Below, piece by piece: positions 6,072 to 35,349 of a stretch of 64,000 bases of DNA. Every line of letters begins with the position of its first letter. Position 1 is the stretch's first letter. This DNA is from Lachnospiraceae bacterium. GTDB taxonomy: Bacteria > Bacillota > Clostridia > Lachnospirales > Lachnospiraceae. Below the pieces are notes generated by a model. The model was not told the origin of the DNA and did no database searches. It saw only the letters and a list, made by a program, of their open reading frames with translations. Where the stretch lies: NCBI GenBank assembly GCA_036311565.1, contig JAXJPR010000041.1, forward strand, positions 187 to 64,186. The letters run 5' to 3'. Position numbers and translations under genes: made by a program.

Positions 6072-6145
6072 GGCGATGTAGCTCAGTTGGCTAGAGCACA
6101 CGGTTCATACCCGTGGTGTCGGCAGTTCGAATCTGCCCGTCGCTA
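6072..6145 (+). tRNA. tRNA-Met (anticodon CAU), elongator-like; Ile2/lysidine identity not excluded
   Basis: Acceptor GGCGATG/CGTCGCT, D-arm GCTCAGTTGGCTAGAGC, anticodon stem CACGG/CCGTG with loop TTCATAC, T-arm GGCAGTTCGAATCTGCC. CCA is not encoded. The same locus carries tRNA-Met in B. subtilis. Confidence 0.9.
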
Positions 6146-7658: not shown

Positions 7659-9026
7659 ATGGAAAAGATTATTCATTATATAAAAAAACATAACTTAATA
7701 AACAATGGAGATAAAATTGTGATTGCATTTTCCGGGGGACCAGATTCTGTTTATTTAATGCTGGTCTTATTAAAACTTCGTGATCAAATGGGGCTTTCTC
7801 TGGGAGCGGTCCACATCAATCACCGACTATTAAAAGAAGCACAGGAACAGGCAGAATTTGCACAGGATTTTTGTGCGCAGCATGAAGTGCCGTTTTATTG
7901 TTTTGAAAAAGATATTCACCGATATGCAAAAGAAGAAAAAATTTCTGTGGAAGAAGCAGGCAGAAAATTCAGGTATCAAAAGTTTTATCAAGTAGCGGAT
8001 GAACTGGGGTATGATTCGGTAGCTCTTGCCCATCATCGCAGTGACCTTTCAGAAACGGTAGTATACCGGATGGCGAGAGGAACTGGATGGAAAGGAATGG
8101 CAGGAATTCGTCCGAGACAAAACAGGCTGATTCGTCCGCTTTTGTGTATATCGAAAGAGGAAATCTTAGAGGAACTAAAAAACCAAAAGCAAAGTTATAA
8201 TATAGATCCTTCTAATGCTGAGACTGTATATGCCAGAAATAAGATTCGTCATAACGTTCTTCCGGAACTGAATAAAGTAAATGCCCAGGCATCCGATCAT
8301 ATTGCAGAGCTTGCAGAGCAGATGGAAGAACTTGGGGCCTATATAGAAGGACATTTAAGTCAGGCATGGAAGGATTGTGTATCTGTGGAAAATGGTATTT
8401 GCAGAATTTGTAGGAGTAAATTAAAAGAGTATCATTTATTTATGCAAAAAGAAGTATTAAAAAAAGCTCTTTCAGAAGTTGCAGGAAGTGAGAAGAATCT
8501 GACGAGAAGTCATGTAGAGCATCTGCTGGATTTGCTGGATGCGCAGACGGGCAGGGAGAAGGATTTTCCTTATAAAGTATGGGCCTTGCGGCAATACGAT
8601 GAACTAGTAATCCAAAAAAGACAAGAAACAGTGTCTGGCAAGATCATACTTTCTGGGGAAGGAGATTTTGAAATTCCATTTGCCAGCGGCTGGATGAATG
8701 TAAAAATTTTTCCTAAGAAAGAGGAAGAGTTTTCGCGAAAAATGTATACGAAAACATTTGACTATGATAAAGTTATGAAGAGTGTGGTCGTGCGAACCTG
8801 GAAAAAAGACGATTACTTTGTCATGAACCAGGAGGGACAGAGAAAAAAACTAAATCGGTATTTTATCGATCAGAAAGTTCCCAAAGACCAGAGAGAAAAA
8901 ATTCCGTTGGTAGCTGATGGAAATCATATTTTATGGATTATCGGTGGAAGAATCAGCGGAGAATATAAAGTGACTGAAGATACAAAAAGGGTGTTGCAGT
9001 TAACGTGGACACAAATGGAGGAATGA
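7659..9026 (+). CDS. tilS: tRNA(Ile)-lysidine synthetase
   Basis: PP-loop motif AFSGGPDS, 455 aa, and position upstream of hpt-ftsH. Confidence 0.93.
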   Translation: MEKIIHYIKKHNLINNGDKIVIAFSGGPDSVYLMLVLLKLRDQMGLSLGAVHINHRLLKEAQEQAEFAQDFCAQHEVPFYCFEKDIHRYAKEEKISVEEAGRKFRYQKFYQVADELGYDSVALAHHRSDLSETVVYRMARGTGWKGMAGIRPRQNRLIRPLLCISKEEILEELKNQKQSYNIDPSNAETVYARNKIRHNVLPELNKVNAQASDHIAELAEQMEELGAYIEGHLSQAWKDCVSVENGICRICRSKLKEYHLFMQKEVLKKALSEVAGSEKNLTRSHVEHLLDLLDAQTGREKDFPYKVWALRQYDELVIQKRQETVSGKIILSGEGDFEIPFASGWMNVKIFPKKEEEFSRKMYTKTFDYDKVMKSVVVRTWKKDDYFVMNQEGQRKKLNRYFIDQKVPKDQREKIPLVADGNHILWIIGGRISGEYKVTEDTKRVLQLTWTQMEE

Positions 9027-14065: not shown

Positions 14066-14147
14066 GGATGGATTCCCGAGTGGCCAAAGGGGGCAGACTG
14101 TAAATCTGTTGGCAACGCCTTCGAAGGTTCGAATCCTTCTCCATCCA
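14066..14147 (+). tRNA. tRNA-Tyr (GUA)
   Basis: Acceptor GGATGGA/TCCATCC, anticodon loop CTGTAAA, long variable arm, T-arm GAAGGTTCGAATCCTTC. CCA not encoded. Confidence 0.93.
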
Positions 14148-14164
14148 CTATCCTTTTTGGATAT

Positions 14165-14251
14165 GCCGGCGTGGCGGAACTGGCAGACGCACAGGACTTA
14201 AAATCCTGCGGGACTTATACTCCCGTACCGGTTCGATTCCGGTCGCCGGCA
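14165..14251 (+). tRNA. tRNA-Leu (UAA)
   Basis: Acceptor GCCGGCG/CGCCGGC, anticodon stem CAGGA/TCCTG with loop CTTAAAA, long variable arm, T-loop GGTTCGATTCC. Confidence 0.93.
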
Positions 14252-14272
14252 TTTGTCATCAGACAAATGCAT

Positions 14273-14343
14273 GCGGGTGTAGTTCAATGGTAGAACACTA
14301 GCCTTCCAAGCTAGATACGTGGGTTCGATTCCCATCACCCGCT
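14273..14343 (+). tRNA. tRNA-Gly (UCC)
   Basis: Acceptor GCGGGTG/CACCCGC, anticodon stem CTAGC/GCTAG with loop CTTCCAA, T-loop GGGTTCGATTCCC. Confidence 0.93.
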
Positions 14344-14378
14344 TTTCTTTTTGCAAAAGCGAAAAGTTCATATGGTTT

Positions 14379-14451
<73 letters not shown>

Positions 14452-14457
14452 TTTTAA

Positions 14458-14530
14458 GCGCGAGTGGCTCAGTTGGTGGAGCACGACCTTGCCAAGGTCG
14501 GGGTCGCGGGTTCGAGTCCCGTCTCGCGCT
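14458..14530 (+). tRNA. tRNA-Gly (GCC)
   Basis: Acceptor GCGCGAG/CTCGCGC, anticodon stem CGACC/GGTCG with loop TTGCCAA, T-loop GGGTTCGAGTCCC. Confidence 0.95.
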
Positions 14531-28252: not shown

Positions 28253-30067
28253 TCACACGCCTGTGGTATGTGTCCGCCAGATATCCATGTCCGATAAGAT
28301 AGACATGGTTATTTCGGTTGCGCTACCTCCGGTAGCATCGCTGTCTGCACCAATGTTGGTAGCAAAAAAGTATGTATTATCAGCAGTTTCGATATAACCG
28401 ATAAACCATCCGTTCACATCTTGGCCATCCACACGGCCGGTTCCGGTCTTTCCGTAGAATGTTCCGGCATCGGAAGAAGAAAGGCAGATGGCATCTTTTA
28501 CTGCATTGATATTTTCAGGGATGAAGCCAAAACTGTTATTCTGCAGCTTGGTTAAAAGTTCGACCTGTTCTATTGGAGAAATCTCCAAGGATGATTCCAT
28601 CCAATAAGTGGAGAAATCACCACTCATGTTTTCGTTACCATATCCGATTTCTTGAATATAGCTGTAAACGTCAGAGACTCCAAGCTGTTCATCTACTGCC
28701 TGGAAGTACCAGTTCACGGAGGAGTTCATTGCGGACTGTAAGGTCTGATCCGCATTCCATGCTTCAAATGGATAGCTTTCTCCATTCCATGCAATAAAGG
28801 AATTTTCCGGGGTAATGATATCTTCTTCCAATCCGAACAGAGCATCATATATTTTGTAGGTGGAGTTTGGAGCAACTCGTAAAGTGGCATGCTCCATGTC
28901 GTGTATGCTCCATGCATCATTTTCCAAATCGTATAAAACAAAGCTGCCTTCGTATTCTCCAAAGTATGTAGAAAGGTCTACATAGGATATATTTTTTGAC
29001 GAGGAATCCCATTGGTAGTGGCTTCCATCTGCTGCGTATGTAGAAATAAAAGGGGCGAATCCTATGAGAAGAACAGCAGTTAGTACAAATGCCGTCATAC
29101 CTTTTAGCCTTTTTATAAATGTTGGCTTCTCATAAGATGCAATATTGATAATTCTCCGCTTCATCTGCTTCATGTTTCCACCAAGGCCGGCAGCAAACGG
29201 AAAAGGAGTAAGAGAAACCTTTTCTGCAAAGTTGATCAGTGTATTGCCATAATCTTCGTAAGCATCCTCTTCAAGCATTTTCAAAACGGAAGTGTCACAG
29301 GCAACCTCTCTGTCATTACGCATTTCTTTCAGAGCGTACCAGACAAGAGGATTGAACCAATATATTACTCCGGCAAGGTTCATCAGATAACTGGCAATAG
29401 CATCTTTGTGCTTATAGTGCTGCAGTTCGTGTAACAGCATATACCGCATATCGGATTCGTTGTAATCAGAGATCAGATGAATCGGAAGATAAATACACGG
29501 TTTCCAAAGTCCCACAATAATCGGGGATTTTAAAAATGCGGTACTGTAGACAGGAATATCTCTGCGAATTTCCATTTCTTCTAAACAGTGATGATACAGT
29601 CTGCGGACTTCTTTGTTCTGAAGGGGAAGTGCAGATTTCTCCAAATTGCGTAAACGGAGAGAGGATTTGATTACCAATATAACCATTGCAAAAATGCCTA
29701 CAATCCATATCCCTAATAATATGTATCCGGCAATGGATGGTGTCTCGCTATTTACAGAAAGTGCGAAATTATTCATCCAGTCTGTATTTCCGGTCGGATT
29801 GGTTCTCACGGCTTCGCCTATAGCTGTTCCAGTGGCGGAAGATGGAGAACTTCTCAGGCTGCCGAGCCACGAGAAGATTTGCGGAAACCCGATGAGACGG
29901 AACGGTATAAAGGGAACTGCCAGCAACCCAAGAAGCAGGAACCACAGATTATACTGCATCCGGCTGGACAGGTTGTTTTTGAATATCCGCTTGGCTATCA
30001 AAAGAATTCCGATGATACCGCTGATAAATACATTGCATATGAAAAAGCGTATCATAAAATTAGCCAC
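28253..30067 (-). CDS. blaR1: BlaR1/MecR1-type beta-lactam sensor-transducer (M56 zinc peptidase plus penicillin-binding sensor domain)
   Basis: N-terminal TM region with zinc motif HELQHYKHKD. The extracellular C-terminal domain carries S-x-x-K (STYK), S-x-N (SVN) and KTG (GKTGTG). Confidence 0.9.
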   Translation of the reverse strand: MANFMIRFFICNVFISGIIGILLIAKRIFKNNLSSRMQYNLWFLLLGLLAVPFIPFRLIGFPQIFSWLGSLRSSPSSATGTAIGEAVRTNPTGNTDWMNNFALSVNSETPSIAGYILLGIWIVGIFAMVILVIKSSLRLRNLEKSALPLQNKEVRRLYHHCLEEMEIRRDIPVYSTAFLKSPIIVGLWKPCIYLPIHLISDYNESDMRYMLLHELQHYKHKDAIASYLMNLAGVIYWFNPLVWYALKEMRNDREVACDTSVLKMLEEDAYEDYGNTLINFAEKVSLTPFPFAAGLGGNMKQMKRRIINIASYEKPTFIKRLKGMTAFVLTAVLLIGFAPFISTYAADGSHYQWDSSSKNISYVDLSTYFGEYEGSFVLYDLENDAWSIHDMEHATLRVAPNSTYKIYDALFGLEEDIITPENSFIAWNGESYPFEAWNADQTLQSAMNSSVNWYFQAVDEQLGVSDVYSYIQEIGYGNENMSGDFSTYWMESSLEISPIEQVELLTKLQNNSFGFIPENINAVKDAICLSSSDAGTFYGKTGTGRVDGQDVNGWFIGYIETADNTYFFATNIGADSDATGGSATEITMSILSDMDIWRTHTTGV

Positions 30068-30068
30068 G

Positions 30069-30455
30069 TTAATTTCCTCCCTTTTTTGACCTCTTGGAAA
30101 GAAGGGAACGAAGGGTGTCTATTTCTGTTTCAGACAGTCTGTCATTTTCAATATATGCAGACAGCATGGCAGTGATATCCCCGTCATAGTATCGTTCCAG
30201 AAAAGAGTTGCTTTCTTGGCCGATGTATTCGCTTTCTTTCACGACTGGGGTATAAACAAACACTCGGCTCTGTTTTTCATAAGTCAGAACGCCTTTTGTT
30301 ACGAGACGTTTGATTAAAGTCTGTATCGTCTTAGGACTCCAGCTTGTGGTCTGTAATAATTTATCCGTTATTTCATTGGTACTGATCGGCGCATGTTTCC
30401 ATACGATTTTCATAACTTCAAATTCAGCTTCAGAAATCTGTGGCAAATTGCTCAT
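30069..30455 (-). CDS. blaI: BlaI/MecI/CopY family transcriptional repressor
   Basis: 128 aa. Winged helix (ISEAEFEVMKIVWKH...TIQTLIKRLVTKGVL). Immediately upstream of and co-directional with blaR1. Confidence 0.92.
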   Translation of the reverse strand: MSNLPQISEAEFEVMKIVWKHAPISTNEITDKLLQTTSWSPKTIQTLIKRLVTKGVLTYEKQSRVFVYTPVVKESEYIGQESNSFLERYYDGDITAMLSAYIENDRLSETEIDTLRSLLSKRSKKGGN

Positions 30456-30474
30456 TTCAAATCCTCCTCAAATC

Positions 30475-30486
30475 TTACAATTGTAA
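30475..30486. promoter_or_regulatory. Putative BlaI operator (perfect palindrome TTACAATTGTAA)
   Basis: A TACA/TGTA dyad 19 nt upstream of the blaI start codon. This matches the TACA-N-TGTA core of known BlaI/MecI operators. Confidence 0.65.
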
Positions 30487-30652
30487 TAAATATATTATAG
30501 GTGTTATTAATGCAGTTGTCAATTTCAGAAATAAGACTACATTCTTGCAGCATCGATAATATTATTGAAATTTTTTGAAAGTTGTGTATAGTTCAAAATG
30601 CTGCTTTGGTATTCTGTGGGTAAAACTGCGGAAACTTAAGGGGTTTCTAATA

Positions 30653-30681
30653 TTGACAACAAACCATAAAAAAAGTAGAAT
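30653..30681 (+). promoter_or_regulatory. Sigma-A promoter of the sulfur-carrier operon
   Basis: TTGACA (30653-30658), 17 nt, TAGAAT (30676-30681). Leaves a leader of about 140 nt before the thioredoxin gene. Confidence 0.55.
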
Positions 30682-30825
30682 ATAATAAAATAAAACATAC
30701 TAAACCGATAGGAAAAGAGAGGTATAATACTATAAAGAAGAGAAATGAAAGGATTTCATTTTTAATTTTATTGAAAAGATAGATGCATATACAATAGGAT
30801 TGTTAGGAAAGTTGGTGAATCAGAC

Positions 30826-31182
30826 ATGGCTGAACGGGTAACATATCGTGAATTCAATGAAAAAGTAATTAAATTTTCGGGATTGGCAATTGTTGATTTT
30901 TATTCTGACTTTTGCGTGCCCTGTAAAAAAATATTACCAGTCTTGTCAGCACTGGAGAAAGAATATCAGGAAGATATTTTCATTACTAAGGTAAACGTGG
31001 CATATGAAAAGGAATTGGTAGAAGAATATCAGATTAGATCTACACCTACGTTTTTGTTCTTTAAAAATGGCAAAATAGTGGAACAGTTTTCTGGAGTAAG
31101 AAAAAAAGAAGAATTGGAACAGATAATTGAATCCTATAGAGAAAAGAGGGAGAGAAAAAATGAGAATTACAGTAGCAGGTGA
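30826..31182 (+). CDS. Thioredoxin-family protein with atypical CVPC active site
   Basis: 118 aa. Thioredoxin fold pattern (IVDFYSDFCVPCKKILP...TPTFLFFKNGK) with CVPC in place of CGPC. Confidence 0.85.
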   Translation: MAERVTYREFNEKVIKFSGLAIVDFYSDFCVPCKKILPVLSALEKEYQEDIFITKVNVAYEKELVEEYQIRSTPTFLFFKNGKIVEQFSGVRKKEELEQIIESYREKRERKNENYSSR

Positions 31183-31378
31183 AATAAAAGAAGTTAAAGA
31201 TGATTTAACAATAGCAGAATTGATAAAGTTGGAAAATGTTGAAACTCCTCAGTATGTGTCCGTATCTGTTAATGATGTTTTTGCAAAAAGTAAAGATTTT
31301 TCAGTACAGAAATTACATGATGGTGATATTGTAGAATTTCTGTATTTTATGGGAGGTGGACAGTATGGCATTTACTGA
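31160..31378 (+). CDS. ThiS/MoaD-like ubiquitin-fold sulfur-carrier protein, precursor form (GGG followed by QYGIY)
   Basis: 72 aa starting at MRITVAGE behind AGAGGGAGAG. The ThiS-like end DGDIVEFLYFMGGG has 5 extra residues. Overlaps trx by 23 nt and the E1 gene by 14 nt. Confidence 0.8.
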   Translation: MRITVAGEIKEVKDDLTIAELIKLENVETPQYVSVSVNDVFAKSKDFSVQKLHDGDIVEFLYFMGGGQYGIY

Positions 31379-32171
31379 TGAGCAGTTAGAACGTTATTCA
31401 AGACATATTATTCTTAAAGATATTGGTGTAAGAGGACAGAAGAAGCTTCTTAATGCAAGAGTGCTTATTATTGGAGCGGGTGGTCTTGGTGCTCCTGCTG
31501 CAATGTATCTTGCAGCAGCAGGTATAGGAACAATTGGCATTGCTGATGCTGATGAGGTTGATTTATCAAATCTTCAGAGACAGATCATTCATGCTACAGA
31601 GGATATAGGAAAGCCTAAGGTAGATTCTGCAAAAGAAACAATAAATAAAATGAATCCAGATGTAACCGTAAATACGTATCATGAGTTTGTCTCAGCTGAA
31701 AATATTCTGGATCTTATTAAAGATTATGATTTTATTATAGATGGAACAGACAATTTTCCGGCAAAATTTTTGATTAATGATGCTTGTGTTCTGGCTAAGA
31801 AACCATTTTCCCATGCGGGAATTATTCGTTTTCAAGGACAGATTATGACTTATGTACCAGGAGAAGGTCCATGCTACCGTTGTGTATTTGAAGGTCCACC
31901 TCCAAAAGATGCAGTTCCTACCTGTAAACAAGCAGGGGTAATCGGTGCTATGGGTGGTGTGATCGGAAGTCTTCAGGCAATGGAAGCAATCAAATACATT
32001 ACAGGAGTAGGGGAATTGCTTACAGGATCACTGCTTACTTTCGATGCGACAAATATGAATTTCCGTAAAGTCAGATTACCAAAATCAAATTGTAACTGTG
32101 CAGTTTGCGGAACAAATCCGACGATAACGCATCCTATTGATTATGAGCAGGAAGAATGCGATGCTATATAA
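31365..32171 (+). CDS. ThiF/MoeB/HesA-family E1-like adenylyltransferase
   Basis: RYSRHI, Rossmann loop IIGAGGLGAP, DLSNLQRQ, and two CxxC pairs (CYRC, CAVC). The start ATG lies 5 nt after GGAGGTGG; the track ORF starts at 31356. Confidence 0.9.
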   Translation: MAFTDEQLERYSRHIILKDIGVRGQKKLLNARVLIIGAGGLGAPAAMYLAAAGIGTIGIADADEVDLSNLQRQIIHATEDIGKPKVDSAKETINKMNPDVTVNTYHEFVSAENILDLIKDYDFIIDGTDNFPAKFLINDACVLAKKPFSHAGIIRFQGQIMTYVPGEGPCYRCVFEGPPPKDAVPTCKQAGVIGAMGGVIGSLQAMEAIKYITGVGELLTGSLLTFDATNMNFRKVRLPKSNCNCAVCGTNPTITHPIDYEQEECDAI

Positions 32172-32174
32172 GGA

Positions 32175-32618
32175 GTGAAGATTACTATGATAACAATATC
32201 AAAAGATAATTATCAGAAAATAGTAGACCATGCGATTGCAGAGCTCCCAAATGAAGCATGCGGTCTTGTTGCGGGCACGGTGGATGGAGTGGATAAGCAT
32301 ATTGAAAAAGTATATCTTCTTACGAATATTGACCATTCCAATGAACACTTTTCGCTGAATCCAAAGGAACAACTGGCAGCAATCAAAGATATGAGAAGCC
32401 TTGGATATGTGCCTCTTGGTAACTGGCATTCTCATCCGGAAACACCATCAAGACCATCTGAAGAAGATAAGAGACTGGCTTATGATAGGAATGCAAGTTA
32501 TCTGATTCTGTCGTTAATGGAGCAGGAGAAGCCGGTACTCCATTCTTTTCATATTGAAGGACTGGATGTCCAAAAAGAAGAGTTGATGATTGAAGATTTG
32601 TATTCTGAGAAATATTAG
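32175..32618 (+). CDS. JAMM/MPN+ (Mov34, Mec+-like) metalloprotease
   Basis: The EACG glutamate plus HSHPETPSRPSEED (H-x-H-x7-S-x2-D). 147 aa, with an alternative ATG start at 32187. Confidence 0.88.
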   Translation: MKITMITISKDNYQKIVDHAIAELPNEACGLVAGTVDGVDKHIEKVYLLTNIDHSNEHFSLNPKEQLAAIKDMRSLGYVPLGNWHSHPETPSRPSEEDKRLAYDRNASYLILSLMEQEKPVLHSFHIEGLDVQKEELMIEDLYSEKY

Positions 32619-32652
32619 AAGAAAAAATAAAGTGGATGAGAGAGGCAAGAAT

Positions 32653-33699
32653 ATGGGGATAAATCAAGATATTGAAGAAATTGAAGTAAAGAATATTTCT
32701 GTTGAAGATTTTGCTAAATTGGATTTTTCAAAAGTGACTTTATTGGATTTAAGAGAAAAAGATCAAGTGCTGGTCGCAGGAATTGAAGGAGCAATTAATA
32801 TTCCTTTCTCGCAGATCAGCAAAAAGTTGAGCAAAGTACCAAAGGATTTACCGGTGTATGTTTTCTGTACAACTGGTGACTGGAGTGAAGAAGTTGCAGA
32901 AATATTATTAGAGCGTGGATATGATACATATAACGTTGTTGGTGGATTTAAGGCATATAAAGAATATATCGCCAATATAGAGCCTGTTAAAATCGATGCA
33001 AAAGAATTGAAATGTCCAGGACCAATTGTAAAGGTAGCAGATGCTATGCGTAATTTAACAGATGGACAAAAGCTTTTTGTCGAGGCAACGGAAGATGCCT
33101 TTGCTTCGGATATTGCTGTGTGGTGTAACAGAACAGGAAATCATCTGGAAAAATTGGAAGTAAAACCGGATGTTATCGAAGCAACCATTGAGAAAAGAAC
33201 AAAGAAGAGCGAGAATGCAGCGGTATTGCCAGATGGAAAAACCTTTGTTGTTTTCAGTGGAGATTTGGATAAAACTATTGCAGCTTTTATTATGGCAAAT
33301 GGTGCTGCTGCAATGGGAAGAGAAGTCACAATTTTCTTTACCTTTTGGGGATTGAATATTTTAAGAAGACCTAATAAGGTAAAAACGAAAAAAACACTGA
33401 TTGAAAAAATGTTTGGTATTATGATGCCGAGAGGAACGAAAAAACTTGGCCTTTCCAGAATGAATATGGGAGGGGCTGGTGCCAAAATGATTCGGGCAGT
33501 CATGAAAAGTAAGGGAGTGTCCTCCCTTGAGGAACTGATTCAAAATGCCATAGACCATGGAGTTCGTCTTGTAGCCTGTCAGATGTCCATGGAAATAATG
33601 GGAATAAAGAAGGAAGAATTAATTGATGGTGTCGAATTGGGTGGAGTAGCGACTTTCTTAGGTTCCGGTGAACAGTCAAATATGAGTTTGTTTATTTAG
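32653..33699 (+). CDS. Rhodanese-TusA(SirA)-DsrE/F tri-domain sulfurtransferase
   Basis: Rhodanese loop FCTTGDWS, TusA motif LKCPGPIVKV, and a DsrE-like domain (TFVVFSGDLDKTIAAFIMANGAAAMG...ACQMSM). Start chosen at the ATG behind GAGAGG; the track ORF starts at 32590. Confidence 0.8.
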   Translation: MGINQDIEEIEVKNISVEDFAKLDFSKVTLLDLREKDQVLVAGIEGAINIPFSQISKKLSKVPKDLPVYVFCTTGDWSEEVAEILLERGYDTYNVVGGFKAYKEYIANIEPVKIDAKELKCPGPIVKVADAMRNLTDGQKLFVEATEDAFASDIAVWCNRTGNHLEKLEVKPDVIEATIEKRTKKSENAAVLPDGKTFVVFSGDLDKTIAAFIMANGAAAMGREVTIFFTFWGLNILRRPNKVKTKKTLIEKMFGIMMPRGTKKLGLSRMNMGGAGAKMIRAVMKSKGVSSLEELIQNAIDHGVRLVACQMSMEIMGIKKEELIDGVELGGVATFLGSGEQSNMSLFI

Positions 33700-33715
33700 A
33701 AGGAGGAGGAAAATA

Positions 33716-34666
33716 ATGGCTCATAGACTTGAAAATGATGTGAATCATCTCGTCAAAAAAATAATAGGAGATTATGAACAAGGAAGGGATATTGATGTTG
33801 TAGAAAACTTTGTACACCCTAATAAGGATGACATTGTTACAATAATCGACCAAATTCGAAATATTATATTCCCAGGATATTATAAAAATAAGAATTATCG
33901 TATATATACGGTACGGAATAACCTGTCAATGCAGCTGGAAGATGTACTGTACAATCTTAGTAAACAGATTTCTATGGTCCTTAAATACTTGCCGGAATAT
34001 GTCAATAAGGAAGAGAAAGAATTGTTGTATGAAGGAGAAAAGTTGTCTTTACAGTTTCTAGAGAAAATAACAGATATCCGGCAATTGATTCAGACGGATC
34101 TGGAGGCAGCATATGATGGAGATCCGGCAGCGTTTAATAAACCAGAAATTATATTTTCATATCCAGGATTGTTTGCAATTTTGGTAAACAGAATCGCACA
34201 TGAATTATATTTGCTTGGAGTACCCCTTATACCAAGAATTATGACAGAATATGCCCATACAGAAACAGGGATCGACATTCATCCGGGGGCAACACTTGGA
34301 AAATACTTCTTTATAGATCATGGTACCGGAATTGTTGTAGGTGAGACAGCAATCATTGGGAATCATGTAAAAATTTATCAGGGAGTAACCATTGGAGCAT
34401 TATCTACCAGAGAAGGGCAGAAATTACACGGGAAGAAGAGGCATCCTACAATAGAAGATAATGTAACTATATATGCAGGTGCTTCTATTCTTGGAGGAGA
34501 TACGGTAATCGGTCATGATTCTGTTATTGGAGGGAATGCATTTATCACTTCTTCAATTCCAAGTAATACAAGAGTAAGTATAAAAAATCAGGAATTGGAG
34601 TATAAACAGGGAAATTGGAACACCACAGAAATCGTTCAAAGCGAGGAGTGGTATTATATAATATAG
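33716..34666 (+). CDS. cysE: Serine O-acetyltransferase (long form with N-terminal helical domain)
   Basis: DIHPGATLGKYFFIDHGTGIVVGETAIIG plus downstream hexapeptide repeats. 316 aa. Confidence 0.85.
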   Translation: MAHRLENDVNHLVKKIIGDYEQGRDIDVVENFVHPNKDDIVTIIDQIRNIIFPGYYKNKNYRIYTVRNNLSMQLEDVLYNLSKQISMVLKYLPEYVNKEEKELLYEGEKLSLQFLEKITDIRQLIQTDLEAAYDGDPAAFNKPEIIFSYPGLFAILVNRIAHELYLLGVPLIPRIMTEYAHTETGIDIHPGATLGKYFFIDHGTGIVVGETAIIGNHVKIYQGVTIGALSTREGQKLHGKKRHPTIEDNVTIYAGASILGGDTVIGHDSVIGGNAFITSSIPSNTRVSIKNQELEYKQGNWNTTEIVQSEEWYYII

Positions 34667-34684
34667 GAAGATGAGGTGTTTGTC

Positions 34685-35164
34685 ATGCATAAAGTATTAG
34701 TAGCATATTTTAGTGCCAGTGGTGTAACAGCAAAACTGGCAAAACGACTCGCAGCAGCCATTGATGCTGATCTGTATGAGATTCAACCAGAGATTCCATA
34801 CACAGATAAGGATCTTGATTGGACCAATAAAAAAAGCCGCAGCAGTGTGGAAATGAATAATCGATCATTTCGTCCGGCAATTGCAAATAAAGTTGAAAAT
34901 GTGGATCAGTACGATATTATTTTCACAGCGTTCCCTATTTGGTGGTACATTGCACCTACGATTGTGAACACATTTCTGGAACAGTATGACTTAACTGGAA
35001 AGACGATTGTTCCGCTGGCAACTTCGGGCAGCAGCGATATGGGGAACACAAACAAAGAACTTGCACCTTCTTGTCCGGGTGCGGTATTAAAAGAAGGAAA
35101 GAGATTTTCTGCAGATGCCAGAGAGGAAGAATTGAAGGCTTGGGCAGAAGAATTTGGTATCTAG
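34685..35164 (+). CDS. Flavodoxin
   Basis: KVLVAYFSASGVT (FMN phosphate loop) and FPIWWY. Start at the ATG 6 nt after GAGGTG. Confidence 0.85.
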   Translation: MHKVLVAYFSASGVTAKLAKRLAAAIDADLYEIQPEIPYTDKDLDWTNKKSRSSVEMNNRSFRPAIANKVENVDQYDIIFTAFPIWWYIAPTIVNTFLEQYDLTGKTIVPLATSGSSDMGNTNKELAPSCPGAVLKEGKRFSADAREEELKAWAEEFGI

Positions 35165-35177
35165 GATTAATTAACAT

Positions 35178-35219
35178 GGCTCCTGAATGCATTGCAATTG
35201 CAATTCAGGGCCGTTTTTT
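35178..35219 (+). terminator. Rho-independent terminator of the sulfur-carrier operon
   Basis: GGCTCCTGAAT / ATTCAGGGCC stem followed by GTTTTTT. Confidence 0.8.
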
Positions 35220-35349
35220 ATTTGAAGATAAAAAGAGATATGACCAGGCTTCTTCTGAATATCAGTACTCATCTTAATTTTAAAGCTTGATATTTTTGGT
35301 TTATTATGAGACTATTATAATAAAGTCGAGGAGAAAGGAGTAACATGAT

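Follow-up and report, generated by a model that had tools for sequence, protein, structure and literature searches.

The seven-gene operon at positions 30826-35164 of the window (the whole 64-kb stretch of DNA that was analysed, from a gut Lachnospiraceae bacterium) probably belongs, intact but truncated at its 5' end, to the HcyS/HcyF/HcyD-type clusters with which anaerobes assimilate sulfur by way of protein thiocarboxylates, and would make a carrier thiocarboxylate for a PLP sulfhydrylase encoded elsewhere. The cluster type is widespread and has already been described (Iyer type 4e; the HcyS/HcyF/HcyD/MetY gene set), and the window operon adds a shortened variant to it, not a new pathway. 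The features are as follows.

30653..30681, + strand: sigma-70-type promoter, TTGACA-17-TAGAAT (11/12 matches)
30758..30820, + strand: decayed remnant of the tusA 3' end (alignment to relatives' tusA-trx junctions)
30826..31182, + strand: thioredoxin (Trx), 118 aa, active site C-V-P-C-K (PF00085, 94 bits)
31160..31378, + strand: ThiS/HcyS-like ubiquitin-fold sulfur carrier, 72 aa (PF02597, 35 bits; TIGR01683, 51.5 bits)
31365..32171, + strand: ThiF/MoeB-type E1 adenylyltransferase without rhodanese, 268 aa (PF00899, 303 bits)
32187..32618, + strand: JAMM/MPN+ metallopeptidase (JAB), 143 aa (Prok-JAB PF14464, 83 bits)
32653..33699, + strand: rhodanese-TusA-DsrE2 (RTD) three-domain fusion, 348 aa, putative persulfide relay (Pfam, NCBIfam)
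33716..34666, + strand: long-form serine O-acetyltransferase (SAT), 316 aa (NF041874, 154 bits)
34685..35164, + strand: flavodoxin (Flavodoxin_4), 159 aa (PF12682, 238 bits; NF005501, 228 bits)
35176..35220, + strand: intrinsic terminator, hairpin then U-run (RNA fold, -20 kcal/mol)

The layout is that described by the first-pass annotation: seven co-directional genes that abut or overlap, in the order listed, behind the TTGACA-17-TAGAAT promoter and ahead of a strong terminator. All seven genes are intact and read in the + direction, and the spacings between successive genes are -23, -14, +15, +34, +16 and +18 nt; the ATG starts preferred by gene callers are 31365 for the E1, 32187 for the JAMM protein and 34685 for the flavodoxin. 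The promoter is followed by a leader of ~140 nt, for which an Rfam search matched no family, even at E <= 1. A simple terminator scan missed the hairpin because of its long loop, and it was recovered by folding positions 35170-35230 (hairpin at 35176-35214 with the U-run next to it; z = -3.68 against 200 shuffles). The operon is flanked by BlaI/BlaR1 and RpiR/PTS genes, and is 99-100% identical between contigs of several samples. The five genes with an estimable dS (Trx, ThiS, E1, JAB and RTD) have dN/dS values of 0.04-0.18 and are under purifying selection; dS was saturated for SAT.

Families were assigned by Pfam, NCBIfam and PDB sequence searches on the seven products. From motifs, the products had been named as a thioredoxin-fold protein with CVPC, a 72-aa ThiS/MoaD-like protein in which GGG is followed by QYGIY, a ThiF/MoeB E1 with a GAGGLG loop and two CxxC pairs, a rhodanese-TusA-DsrE fusion, a long-form SAT and a flavodoxin, and these assignments were upheld. 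For the JAMM protease the family stood and the motif spacing did not, being one x off: the motif, HSHPETPSRPSEED, fits the canonical HxHx7Sx2D. The pattern E..HSHx7Sx2D is invariant in 18 orthologues, and the protein matches PDB entry 2kks (E 7e-46). The carrier passed the TIGR01683 cutoff of 37.45 bits, and its best PDB match is ThiS (2k5p, E 4e-9). Its C-terminus, FMGGG, is capped by QYGIY; FMGGG plus 1-6 residues ends all 83 tabulated orthologue sequences of the carrier (77 non-duplicate loci), so a peptidase would be obligatory. ThiF is the sole domain of the E1, which contains the motifs GAGGLG, CYRC and CAVC, can be aligned over its entire length with ThiF (1zfn) and MoeB (1jw9) of E. 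coli, and conserves both CxxC pairs (Zn sites) and the crossover-loop cysteine (PTCKQAGV). The thioredoxin active site is likewise recurrent, with C-[VI]-P-C-K in 56/58 Trx orthologues adjoining ThiS.

In the relay fusion, the Rhodanese, TusA and DrsE_2 Pfam models scored 47, 58 and 214 bits, respectively, and the DsrE2 domain matches PDB entry 3pnx (E 6e-34). Cys72 (rhodanese), Cys121 and Cys158 (TusA) and Cys309 (DsrE2) are invariant in five homologues of 61-90% identity, and the TusA domain holds the CPGP cysteine. As each of the three domains keeps its active-site cysteine, the fusion is predicted to be a persulfide relay. The SAT exceeds the NF041874 cutoff of 150 bits, and its homology to long-form SATs of solved structure (9u39/6lcn, E 2e-75, residues 5-299) is full-length. 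None of the 55 orthologous loci for which 5 kb or more of downstream sequence was available has the flavodoxin, which, judged from this distribution, is a lineage-specific addition. The seven-gene form is conserved in part: the rhodanese-TusA-DsrE2 and SAT tail recurs among close relatives, whereas the full form including the flavodoxin turned up in no species other than that of the window (loci L001-L003).

No CysK, CysM or MetY-like gene was found in the whole 64 kb by motif scan and tblastn, as the first-pass annotation had claimed for the operon. Sulfite reductase, cysteine desulfurase and stand-alone TusA were also not found in the 64 kb and, like the missing PLP sulfhydrylase, this counts against the preferred reading. 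There were no sulfate activation or transport genes among the window ORFs scanned. The surroundings of the module were surveyed in JAMM orthologue loci from 80 species, 64 of which had enough upstream sequence. A MetY-like O-acetylhomoserine/O-acetylserine sulfhydrylase lies within 6 kb upstream in 55/64 loci; the other nine are, like the window, without a nearby PLP enzyme. Adjacency of a sulfhydrylase in orthologous operons, against which the first-pass reading had been staked, is thus usual though not universal. The MetY-like enzyme scores 421 bits on TIGR01326, under the 495-bit cutoff, and its PDB matches include W. succinogenes MetY (3ri6, E 1e-88), third in rank. The genes usually run MetY-sulfite reductase-TusA-Trx-ThiS-E1-JAMM-TrxR, with APS reductase and CysDN next; genes for a sulfate ABC transporter, APS reductase, CysDN and a small sulfite reductase are likewise present in many loci. 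No gene interrupts ThiS-E1-JAB-RTD in L004, L009, L012, L090 and L092, the last two with a Cys_Met_Meta_PP gene directly upstream; in L006 and L007 only TrxR separates ThiS-E1-JAB from RTD. The clade abounds in gut and rumen Clostridia and Fibrobacter, with >7,500 JAMM homologues at E <= 1e-5 and ~4,000 relay-fusion homologues.

A trace of the usual upstream gene survives in the 63 nt ahead of trx. These read …IVRKVGE in one frame, with the frame broken upstream, and were aligned with the tusA-trx junctions of loci L004, L006, L009, L012 and L010. The local score against L004 tusA was 47, compared with 20.3 +/- 2.5 (maximum 30) for shuffles, 0/300 of which reached 47. This relic marks the 5' truncation point of a longer ancestral operon. 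Together, the relic and the MetY-like gene upstream of most orthologous modules imply that the operon is a 5'-truncated descendant of a longer cluster, and that the sulfhydrylase is missing because the upstream part of the ancestral operon (…MetY/CyD-tusA) was deleted. Its absence would therefore reflect a 5' truncation, specific to this lineage, of a cluster type already known, and not a designed sulfhydrylase-free system; the first-pass interpretation is supported in part.

The general Ubl + E1 + JAMM thiocarboxylate logic proposed in that annotation was judged correct, and of the three explanations it offered (an acceptor enzyme encoded elsewhere, an uncharacterised product or a protein modifier), the first is the most likely. 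In its favour are domains above curated cutoffs and the conserved catalytic residues of the JAMM protein, the E1 and the relay. A mechanism can be outlined in which all five steps are modelled on characterised homologues. The JAMM peptidase would trim QYGIY off the carrier to expose the Gly-Gly end, and the E1 would then adenylate the carrier carboxylate. Sulfane sulfur would be passed as persulfide via rhodanese, TusA and DsrE2 to the carrier-AMP/E1 complex. This would give an acyl-(per)sulfide, perhaps attached to the conserved loop cysteine of the E1, which the dedicated C-V-P-C thioredoxin would reduce to carrier-COSH. The fourth step would involve a MetY/CysK-type sulfhydrylase encoded elsewhere than in the window: its aminoacrylate or vinylglycine intermediate, bound to PLP, would be attacked by the thiocarboxylate, which the enzyme would use with O-acetylserine, supplied by the SAT, or with O-acetylhomoserine. 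An S-to-N acyl shift would follow, after which the JAMM protein would free cysteine (or homocysteine) and regenerate the carrier.

It is also conceivable, albeit unlikely, that the thiocarboxylate feeds another thiolation, of tRNA (TtuB/TtuC/TtuA-like), a thio-cofactor or a natural product, the missing sulfhydrylase then being a functional trait. In L004 the module is followed by radical SAM genes and by PP-loop ATPases (TtcA/TtuA-like, NF007972, 202 bits), and in L090 and L092 by PP-loop genes, so other acceptors are possible, which weighs against the preferred reading; the nine loci without a PLP enzyme nearby also fit. However, the window operon contains no PP-loop thiolase or NRPS-like gene, and the sole PP-loop protein of the window is TilS, at 7659. 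The SAT points to cysteine, MetY and sulfate-assimilation genes dominate the orthologous clusters, and the tusA relic argues for a gene set that was cut down and not designed. If the truncation had instead left a stranded, decaying remnant with no acceptor, in which only the SAT, thioredoxin or flavodoxin is still useful, the tusA pseudogene fragment and the loss of all upstream partners would be expected, and such clusters do erode, as is indicated by L009, with its relay gene split in two, and by L006, which has lost MetY and some of the desulfurase by deletion. This is rather improbable given seven intact ORFs with catalytic residues kept, a consensus-like promoter and strong terminator framing the operon, the low dN/dS values, and the identical arrangement in several independent samples.

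It is very unlikely that the carrier is, or is also, a SAMP/TtuB-like modifier attached covalently to proteins, with the JAMM protein as deconjugase. On the SAMP-activating UbaA model the E1 reaches 332 bits, and on the desampylase model the JAMM protein reaches 72 bits, but these lie far under the curated cutoffs of 450 and 130; all the genomic associations are metabolic, and no target or E2-like gene is present. Scarcely credible is an ordinary ThiS-ThiF pair for thiazole/thiamine or MoaD-MoeB pair for molybdopterin, even though the carrier passes the ThiS equivalog model and the E1 falls just below the ThiF equivalog cutoff (274.1 vs 275.25). Neither thiG, thiH, thiO, thiE, thiC nor moaE was found in the window ORFs scanned or among 22 recurrent families clustered from ±7 kb of orthologous loci, and a capped carrier with a JAMM protein never occurs in classical thiamine/Moco operons (PMC1779556). 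Membership of the thiamine ThiS-ThiF type was rejected on these grounds, and such genes should not be annotated as thiamine ThiS/ThiF.

The operon is related through its SAT to the family 2A desulfurase-encapsulin operons, which have accessory rhodanese and serine O-acetyltransferase genes (PMC8346489, PMC10836720). The window SAT is orthologous to the SAT after the encapsulin-CyD pair in Fibrobacter (53-56% identity), an orthologue of 86-87% identity shares a cluster with encapsulin-CyD in close Lachnospiraceae relatives, and in the window, too, a rhodanese-containing protein neighbours the SAT. Encapsulin and desulfurase genes adjoin the orthologous module in L004, L006, L007, L009-L011, L013 and eight Fibrobacter loci; L012 has the desulfurase only, at a contig end. 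Family 2A is defined by an encapsulin shell gene and a cysteine desulfurase with an N-terminal loading domain, and the window falls outside it, with no tblastn match to shell or desulfurase cargo genes in the 64 kb. Trx-ThiS-E1-JAMM, the rhodanese-TusA-DsrE2 fusion and SAT might nevertheless form an exit route for desulfurase-encapsulin sulfur stores (S0/persulfide to relay to thiocarboxylate to cysteine, with SAT-made O-acetylserine), the window then being a lone remobilisation arm with its encapsulin elsewhere or re-purposed for environmental sulfane sulfur (thiosulfate/polysulfide) in the gut; this is a speculative and improbable proposal. Remobilisation of encapsulin-stored sulfur has been stated as an open question (PMC10836720). 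The linkage in the closest relatives is a testable candidate for that process, and a more novel lead than the window operon.

The operon shows that the module can exist apart from its sulfhydrylase and sulfite reductase and have a fused relay and an SAT as partners instead. This is relevant to the way in which sulfane sulfur is assimilated by anaerobes without recourse to free sulfide. To our knowledge, protein-thiocarboxylate routes to cysteine or homocysteine have been characterised in only a few organisms. A homocysteine pathway of this kind, HcyS/HcyF/HcyD/MetY of Wolinella succinogenes, was reportedly described by Krishnamoorthy and Begley in 2011. The window shares with it and with type 4e a capped ThiS-like carrier, a rhodanese-less E1 and a JAMM (JAB) peptidase in the operon, and a TusA/SirA domain. 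It differs in having no adjacent MetY, sulfite reductase or sulfate activation, transport and assimilation genes, in retaining TusA only as a fusion domain and a pseudogene relic, and in adding the C-[VI]-P-C thioredoxin, SAT and flavodoxin. Type 4e was defined by Iyer et al. (2006) as ThiS/MoaD, JAB, rhodanese-less E1, SirA/TusA, OAH sulfhydrylase and sulfate-assimilation genes (PMC1779556), and such a neighbourhood holds the orthologues of the window's JAMM, E1 and ThiS in 55/64 species loci. W. succinogenes MetY is documented as using the carrier thiocarboxylate (PMC8191291).

The CysO/MoeZ/Mec+/CysM system of M. tuberculosis shares the carrier thiocarboxylate and JAMM logic, and its cysteine product is the one to which the window SAT points. 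There, CysO is uncapped (ending in GG) and MoeZ has a C-terminal rhodanese of its own; the CysM gene lies alongside, and O-phosphoserine serves as the acceptor substrate. In contrast, the window carrier is capped, its E1 is without rhodanese and no CysM or other PALP-family gene is found in the window, which rules out this type (Iyer types 4c/4d). The relay resembles rhd-tusA-dsrE2 of sulfur oxidisers (Allochromatium vinosum), its three domains matching theirs in kind and order, with a conserved cysteine in each; DsrE3A/TusA of Metallosphaera (PMC4175335) and the sHdr-associated relay (PMC11094781) are related. In the window, however, the domains are fused in one soluble 348-aa polypeptide, and the predicted relay is tied to assimilatory Ubl/E1/JAMM in fermentative Clostridia rather than to Dsr/sHdr sulfur oxidation.

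The operon under study (30826-35164) comprises seven open reading frames on the plus strand, with successive junctions of -23, -14, +15, +34, +16 and +18 nt. Profile searches confirmed each of the seven gene assignments made in the first-pass annotation, and the promoter and terminator proposed there were also recovered.

30653-30681, plus strand: promoter, TTGACA-17-TAGAAT
Gene 1, plus strand: thioredoxin (Trx; PF00085, 94 bits), with a CVPC site
Gene 2, plus strand: ThiS-family carrier, 72 aa (TIGR01683, 51.5 bits, cutoff 37.45; nearest PDB entries ThiS 2k5p/3cwi, E 4e-9)
Gene 3, plus strand: ThiF/MoeB E1, 268 aa, without a rhodanese domain (PF00899, 303 bits)
Gene 4, plus strand: Prok-JAB/JAMM peptidase (83 bits; nearest structure 2kks, E 7e-46)
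Gene 5, plus strand: rhodanese-TusA-DsrE2 fusion (47, 58 and 214 bits, respectively)
Gene 6, plus strand: serine O-acetyltransferase (SAT; NF041874, 154 bits, cutoff 150; long-form SATs 9u39/6lcn/3f1x match over the full length, E 2e-75)
Gene 7, plus strand: Flavodoxin_4 protein (238 bits)
35176-35214, plus strand: terminator hairpin followed by a U-run (-20 kcal/mol, z = -3.7)

The loop-length rule of the terminator scan had excluded the hairpin, which was found by direct folding. Rfam searches detected no riboswitch or T-box, either in the window as a whole (gathering thresholds) or in the ~140-nt leader (E <= 1). By its JAMM protein, taken from the ATG start (P0001, 100% identity), the source is an uncultured Lachnospiraceae bacterium. 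The same operon occurs at 99-100% identity on contigs of several samples. Its flanks are unrelated to sulfur: upstream lies a divergent BlaI/BlaR1 pair, and downstream are PTS genes and a gene for an RpiR regulator. The BlaI (Penicillinase_R) and BlaR1 (Peptidase_M56 plus transpeptidase) genes lie within 28253-30522 on the minus strand, and their promoter (TTGACA-17-TATAAT, 30522-30494, a perfect 12/12 match) lies in the intergenic region common to the sulfur operon. Five clustered tRNA genes and an isolated one (Rfam RF00005) were located at 14066-14530 and 6072-6145 of the window.

A six-frame regular-expression search of the 64-kb window returned no credible match to the PLP-lysine motifs of CysK and MetY. 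A tblastn search, for which the queries were CysK and CysM of E. coli together with clostridial proteins (MetY-like, encapsulin, desulfurase and TusA), agreed with this: CysK, CysM, MetY, encapsulin, cysteine desulfurase and stand-alone TusA are not encoded within the 64 kb. The earlier statement that no CysM/CysK/MetY-like gene is present is therefore borne out for the window.

Orthologous loci were surveyed in one genome per GTDB species, and the best 80 of 579 JAMM-orthologue loci were retained. Their genes were annotated by BLASTP against a reference set of sequences gathered in the analysis, supplemented with CysK and CysM from E. coli; ORFs left unassigned were clustered. Among the best 80 of 579, 64 loci had at least 4.3 kb of upstream sequence, and in 55 of these a Cys_Met_Meta_PP enzyme of ~408 aa is encoded no more than 6 kb upstream of the JAMM. 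It is a member of the O-acetylhomoserine/O-acetylserine sulfhydrylase family (TIGR01326 at 421 bits, below the 495-bit cutoff), its top PDB matches being 8sf5, T. maritima MetY 7kb0 and W. succinogenes MetY 3ri6 (E 1e-88). A nearby PLP enzyme is absent from the other nine of the 64. Whether a sulfhydrylase normally accompanies these genes, a question raised by the first-pass annotation, can thus be answered: one is normally near, but not universally. The usual order in Ruminococcaceae/Oscillospiraceae is MetY - small AsrC/DsrB-like sulfite reductase - TusA - Trx - ThiS - E1 - JAMM - thioredoxin reductase (TrxR) - AprA/AprB - CysD/CysN, and genes for a sulfate ABC transporter, for siroheme and for an Rrf2 regulator are frequent neighbors. 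This neighborhood is type 4e of Iyer, Burroughs and Aravind 2006, reported from Wolinella, Geobacter and several Firmicutes (PMC1779556). In Wolinella, the sulfur donor of MetY is a carrier-protein thiocarboxylate (PMC8191291).

Orthologous loci considered further (L-numbers)
L006:7465-8393 versus L007:5344-8393: difference between two loci; L006 has a desulfurase of 291 aa and no MetY-like gene
L004:2584-8635; L006/L007:4543-8640; L009-L013: encapsulin-linked loci outside Fibrobacter
L017-L019, L031, L058, L064, L071, L078: encapsulin-linked loci of Fibrobacter
L090:6184-10023; L092:6146-9875: compact Oscillospiraceae operon, Cys_Met_Meta_PP (400 aa)-ThiS-E1-JAMM-rhodanese/TusA/DsrE2

Upstream of the carrier block, the nearest relatives (JAMM identity 75-82%) carry genes for a second JAMM, a Ubl-E1-rhodanese fusion, an encapsulin of family 2A with its cysteine-desulfurase cargo, and TusA; MetY, where present, stands before TusA. 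Downstream of the block come the rhodanese-TusA-DsrE2 fusion and SAT, in some cases after a TrxR gene. In the window, the 63 nt directly 5' of trx (30758-30820) align with the 3'-terminal part of these relatives' tusA, with ...IVRKVGE still readable in one frame and the frame disrupted farther upstream. The local alignment scored 47, against 20.3 +/- 2.5 (maximum 30) for shuffled sequences, and none of 300 shuffles reached the observed value. The operon promoter now lies ~80 nt upstream of this truncation scar. The relic argues that the window operon is, as judged from its sequence, the 5'-truncated descendant of a longer operon. The missing sulfhydrylase, on which the first-pass annotation had rested its view of the operon as the least explained unit, thereby acquires a simple evolutionary explanation, in the orthologous MetY clusters and the tusA relic. 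Nor is the loss unique to the window, given the nine loci and L006. The latter shares an identical JAMM (P0041) and flanks with L007, and is without MetY and half of the desulfurase, which reflects either a natural deletion polymorphism that removed the sulfhydrylase or an assembly artefact. The flavodoxin gene was found only in the window's own species (0/55 other loci).

The relay fusion has ~4,000 homologues at E <= 1e-10, chiefly in Clostridia. ThiS-E1-JAMM-fusion is uninterrupted in L004, L009 and L012, and TrxR is the sole interruption in L006/L007. Two more distant operons from Oscillospiraceae, L090 and L092, also have the run uninterrupted, with a Cys_Met_Meta_PP gene immediately before it; this compact operon amounts to a complete version of the window's core. 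In L092 the run is followed directly by a PP-loop ATPase gene, and genes for ThiF, a cysteine desulfurase and a PP-loop protein are found downstream in L090. In L089, the fusion stands between two Rrf2 regulator genes and adjoins a complete MetY-Sir-TusA-Trx-ThiS-E1-JAMM-TrxR cluster. Gene order places the relay fusion in one unit with the carrier genes. No carrier module was found near the homologue in one sampled context (L091), so the fusion also serves other sulfur contexts; that homologue (L091:8452-17825) follows a methionine sulfoxide reductase gene, beside two glycyl-radical enzyme/activase pairs. The fusion gene of a Lachnospiraceae MAG (L009:10436-11500) is split into ORFs of 145 and 193 aa by a frameshift or sequencing error. 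The rhodanese-TusA-DsrE2 domain order is the rhd-tusA-dsrE2 gene order of sulfur oxidisers and, by analogy, points to a persulfide relay.

The JAMM motif E...HSHx7Sx2D is invariant in 18 orthologues. The E1 aligns over its whole length with ThiF and MoeB of E. coli, and both Zn-binding CxxC pairs are kept. Its crossover-loop cysteine (PTCKQAGV, a motif found in 82/83 E1 orthologues) aligns with those of ThiF and MoeB, which we take to be Cys184 and Cys187. The relay fusion retains rhodanese C72, C121 of the TusA CPGP motif (plus C158) and DsrE2 C309. The carrier ends in FMGGG plus 1-6 extra residues (Q, C, R, QYGIY, SYGVH and others) in all 83 orthologue sequences tabulated (77 non-duplicate loci), and proteolytic uncapping is therefore obligatory in the carrier family. 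The carrier is predicted to be a beta-grasp protein from the ThiS HMM and the match to PDB 2k5p, annotated as ThiS; single-sequence AlphaFold2 gave a pLDDT of 41.5, too low to use. The ThiS-adjacent thioredoxin has a C-[VI]-P-C-K active site, not WCGPCK, in 56/58 orthologues (window 30826-31182; L004-L087), and a TrxR gene follows the JAMM in 31/55 loci, which suggests that the two form a redox pair dedicated to carrier chemistry.

The most probable function is the production of a thiocarboxylate for a distant acceptor. The carrier would be uncapped by the JAMM and adenylated by the E1, the relay fusion would supply sulfane sulfur, and carrier-COSH would form when the dedicated thioredoxin resolves the acyl-(per)sulfide. 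Its condensation with O-acetylhomoserine or with O-acetylserine, the latter from the operon's SAT, would fall to a putative MetY/CysK-type enzyme encoded outside the window, and after an acyl shift the JAMM would release the amino acid.

That the thiocarboxylate instead serves another thiolation target is unlikely, though PP-loop ATPases adjoin the module in L004, L090 and L092. In Tyzzerella (L004:11506-14656), the stretch downstream of the fusion encodes a PP-loop protein of rhodanese-TtcA-like type (NF007972, 202 bits), together with a radical SAM enzyme, an HD-like protein and a short fragment of ThiF, and may represent a thiolation or natural-product side branch. It is less likely still that the operon is a stranded remnant; pairwise dN/dS against two relatives was 0.04-0.18 for Trx, ThiS, E1, JAMM and the fusion, dS being saturated for SAT and for three L006 comparisons. 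The pseudogene, SAMP-modifier and thiamine/Moco readings all ranked low: a SAMP-like role for the carrier is highly improbable, and a plain ThiS/ThiF or MoaD/MoeB pair is the least credible of all.

An encapsulin-desulfurase pair is contiguous with the carrier module in 12-13 of 55 surveyed loci (Lachnospiraceae, Tyzzerella, Roseburia, Fibrobacter). In two unrelated phyla, the family 2A encapsulin (NF041162, 488 bits), its desulfurase cargo (NF041166, 779 bits), a second JAMM and a 487-aa Ubl-E1-rhodanese fusion adjoin the HcyS-type ThiS-E1-JAMM block. Two accessory genes of desulfurase-encapsulin operons are known, SAT and rhodanese (PMC8346489, PMC10836720), and how the stored sulfur is remobilised is stated to be unknown (PMC10836720). 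No mention of ThiF/JAMM genes, thiocarboxylates or sulfur-carrier proteins was found in the available encapsulin literature, including both papers. The carrier/relay/SAT module is a candidate for this remobilisation; for the window locus, itself without an encapsulin, such a role is speculative and doubtful.

The thiocarboxylate system proposed here would work like the HcyS and CysO systems. In comparison with a CysO/MoeZ-type cluster, the window has a capped carrier, an E1 without rhodanese and no CysM, differences that rule out that class; a thiamine cluster was likewise rejected. The carrier, E1, JAMM and TusA of the type 4e/HcyS class are all present, whereas the adjacent MetY and sulfite reductase are found in the orthologous loci and not in the window. 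The type 4e gene set is the one characterised biochemically in W. succinogenes, and the window operon is distinguished by its fused three-domain relay, its C-[VI]-P-C thioredoxin and its tail of SAT and flavodoxin.
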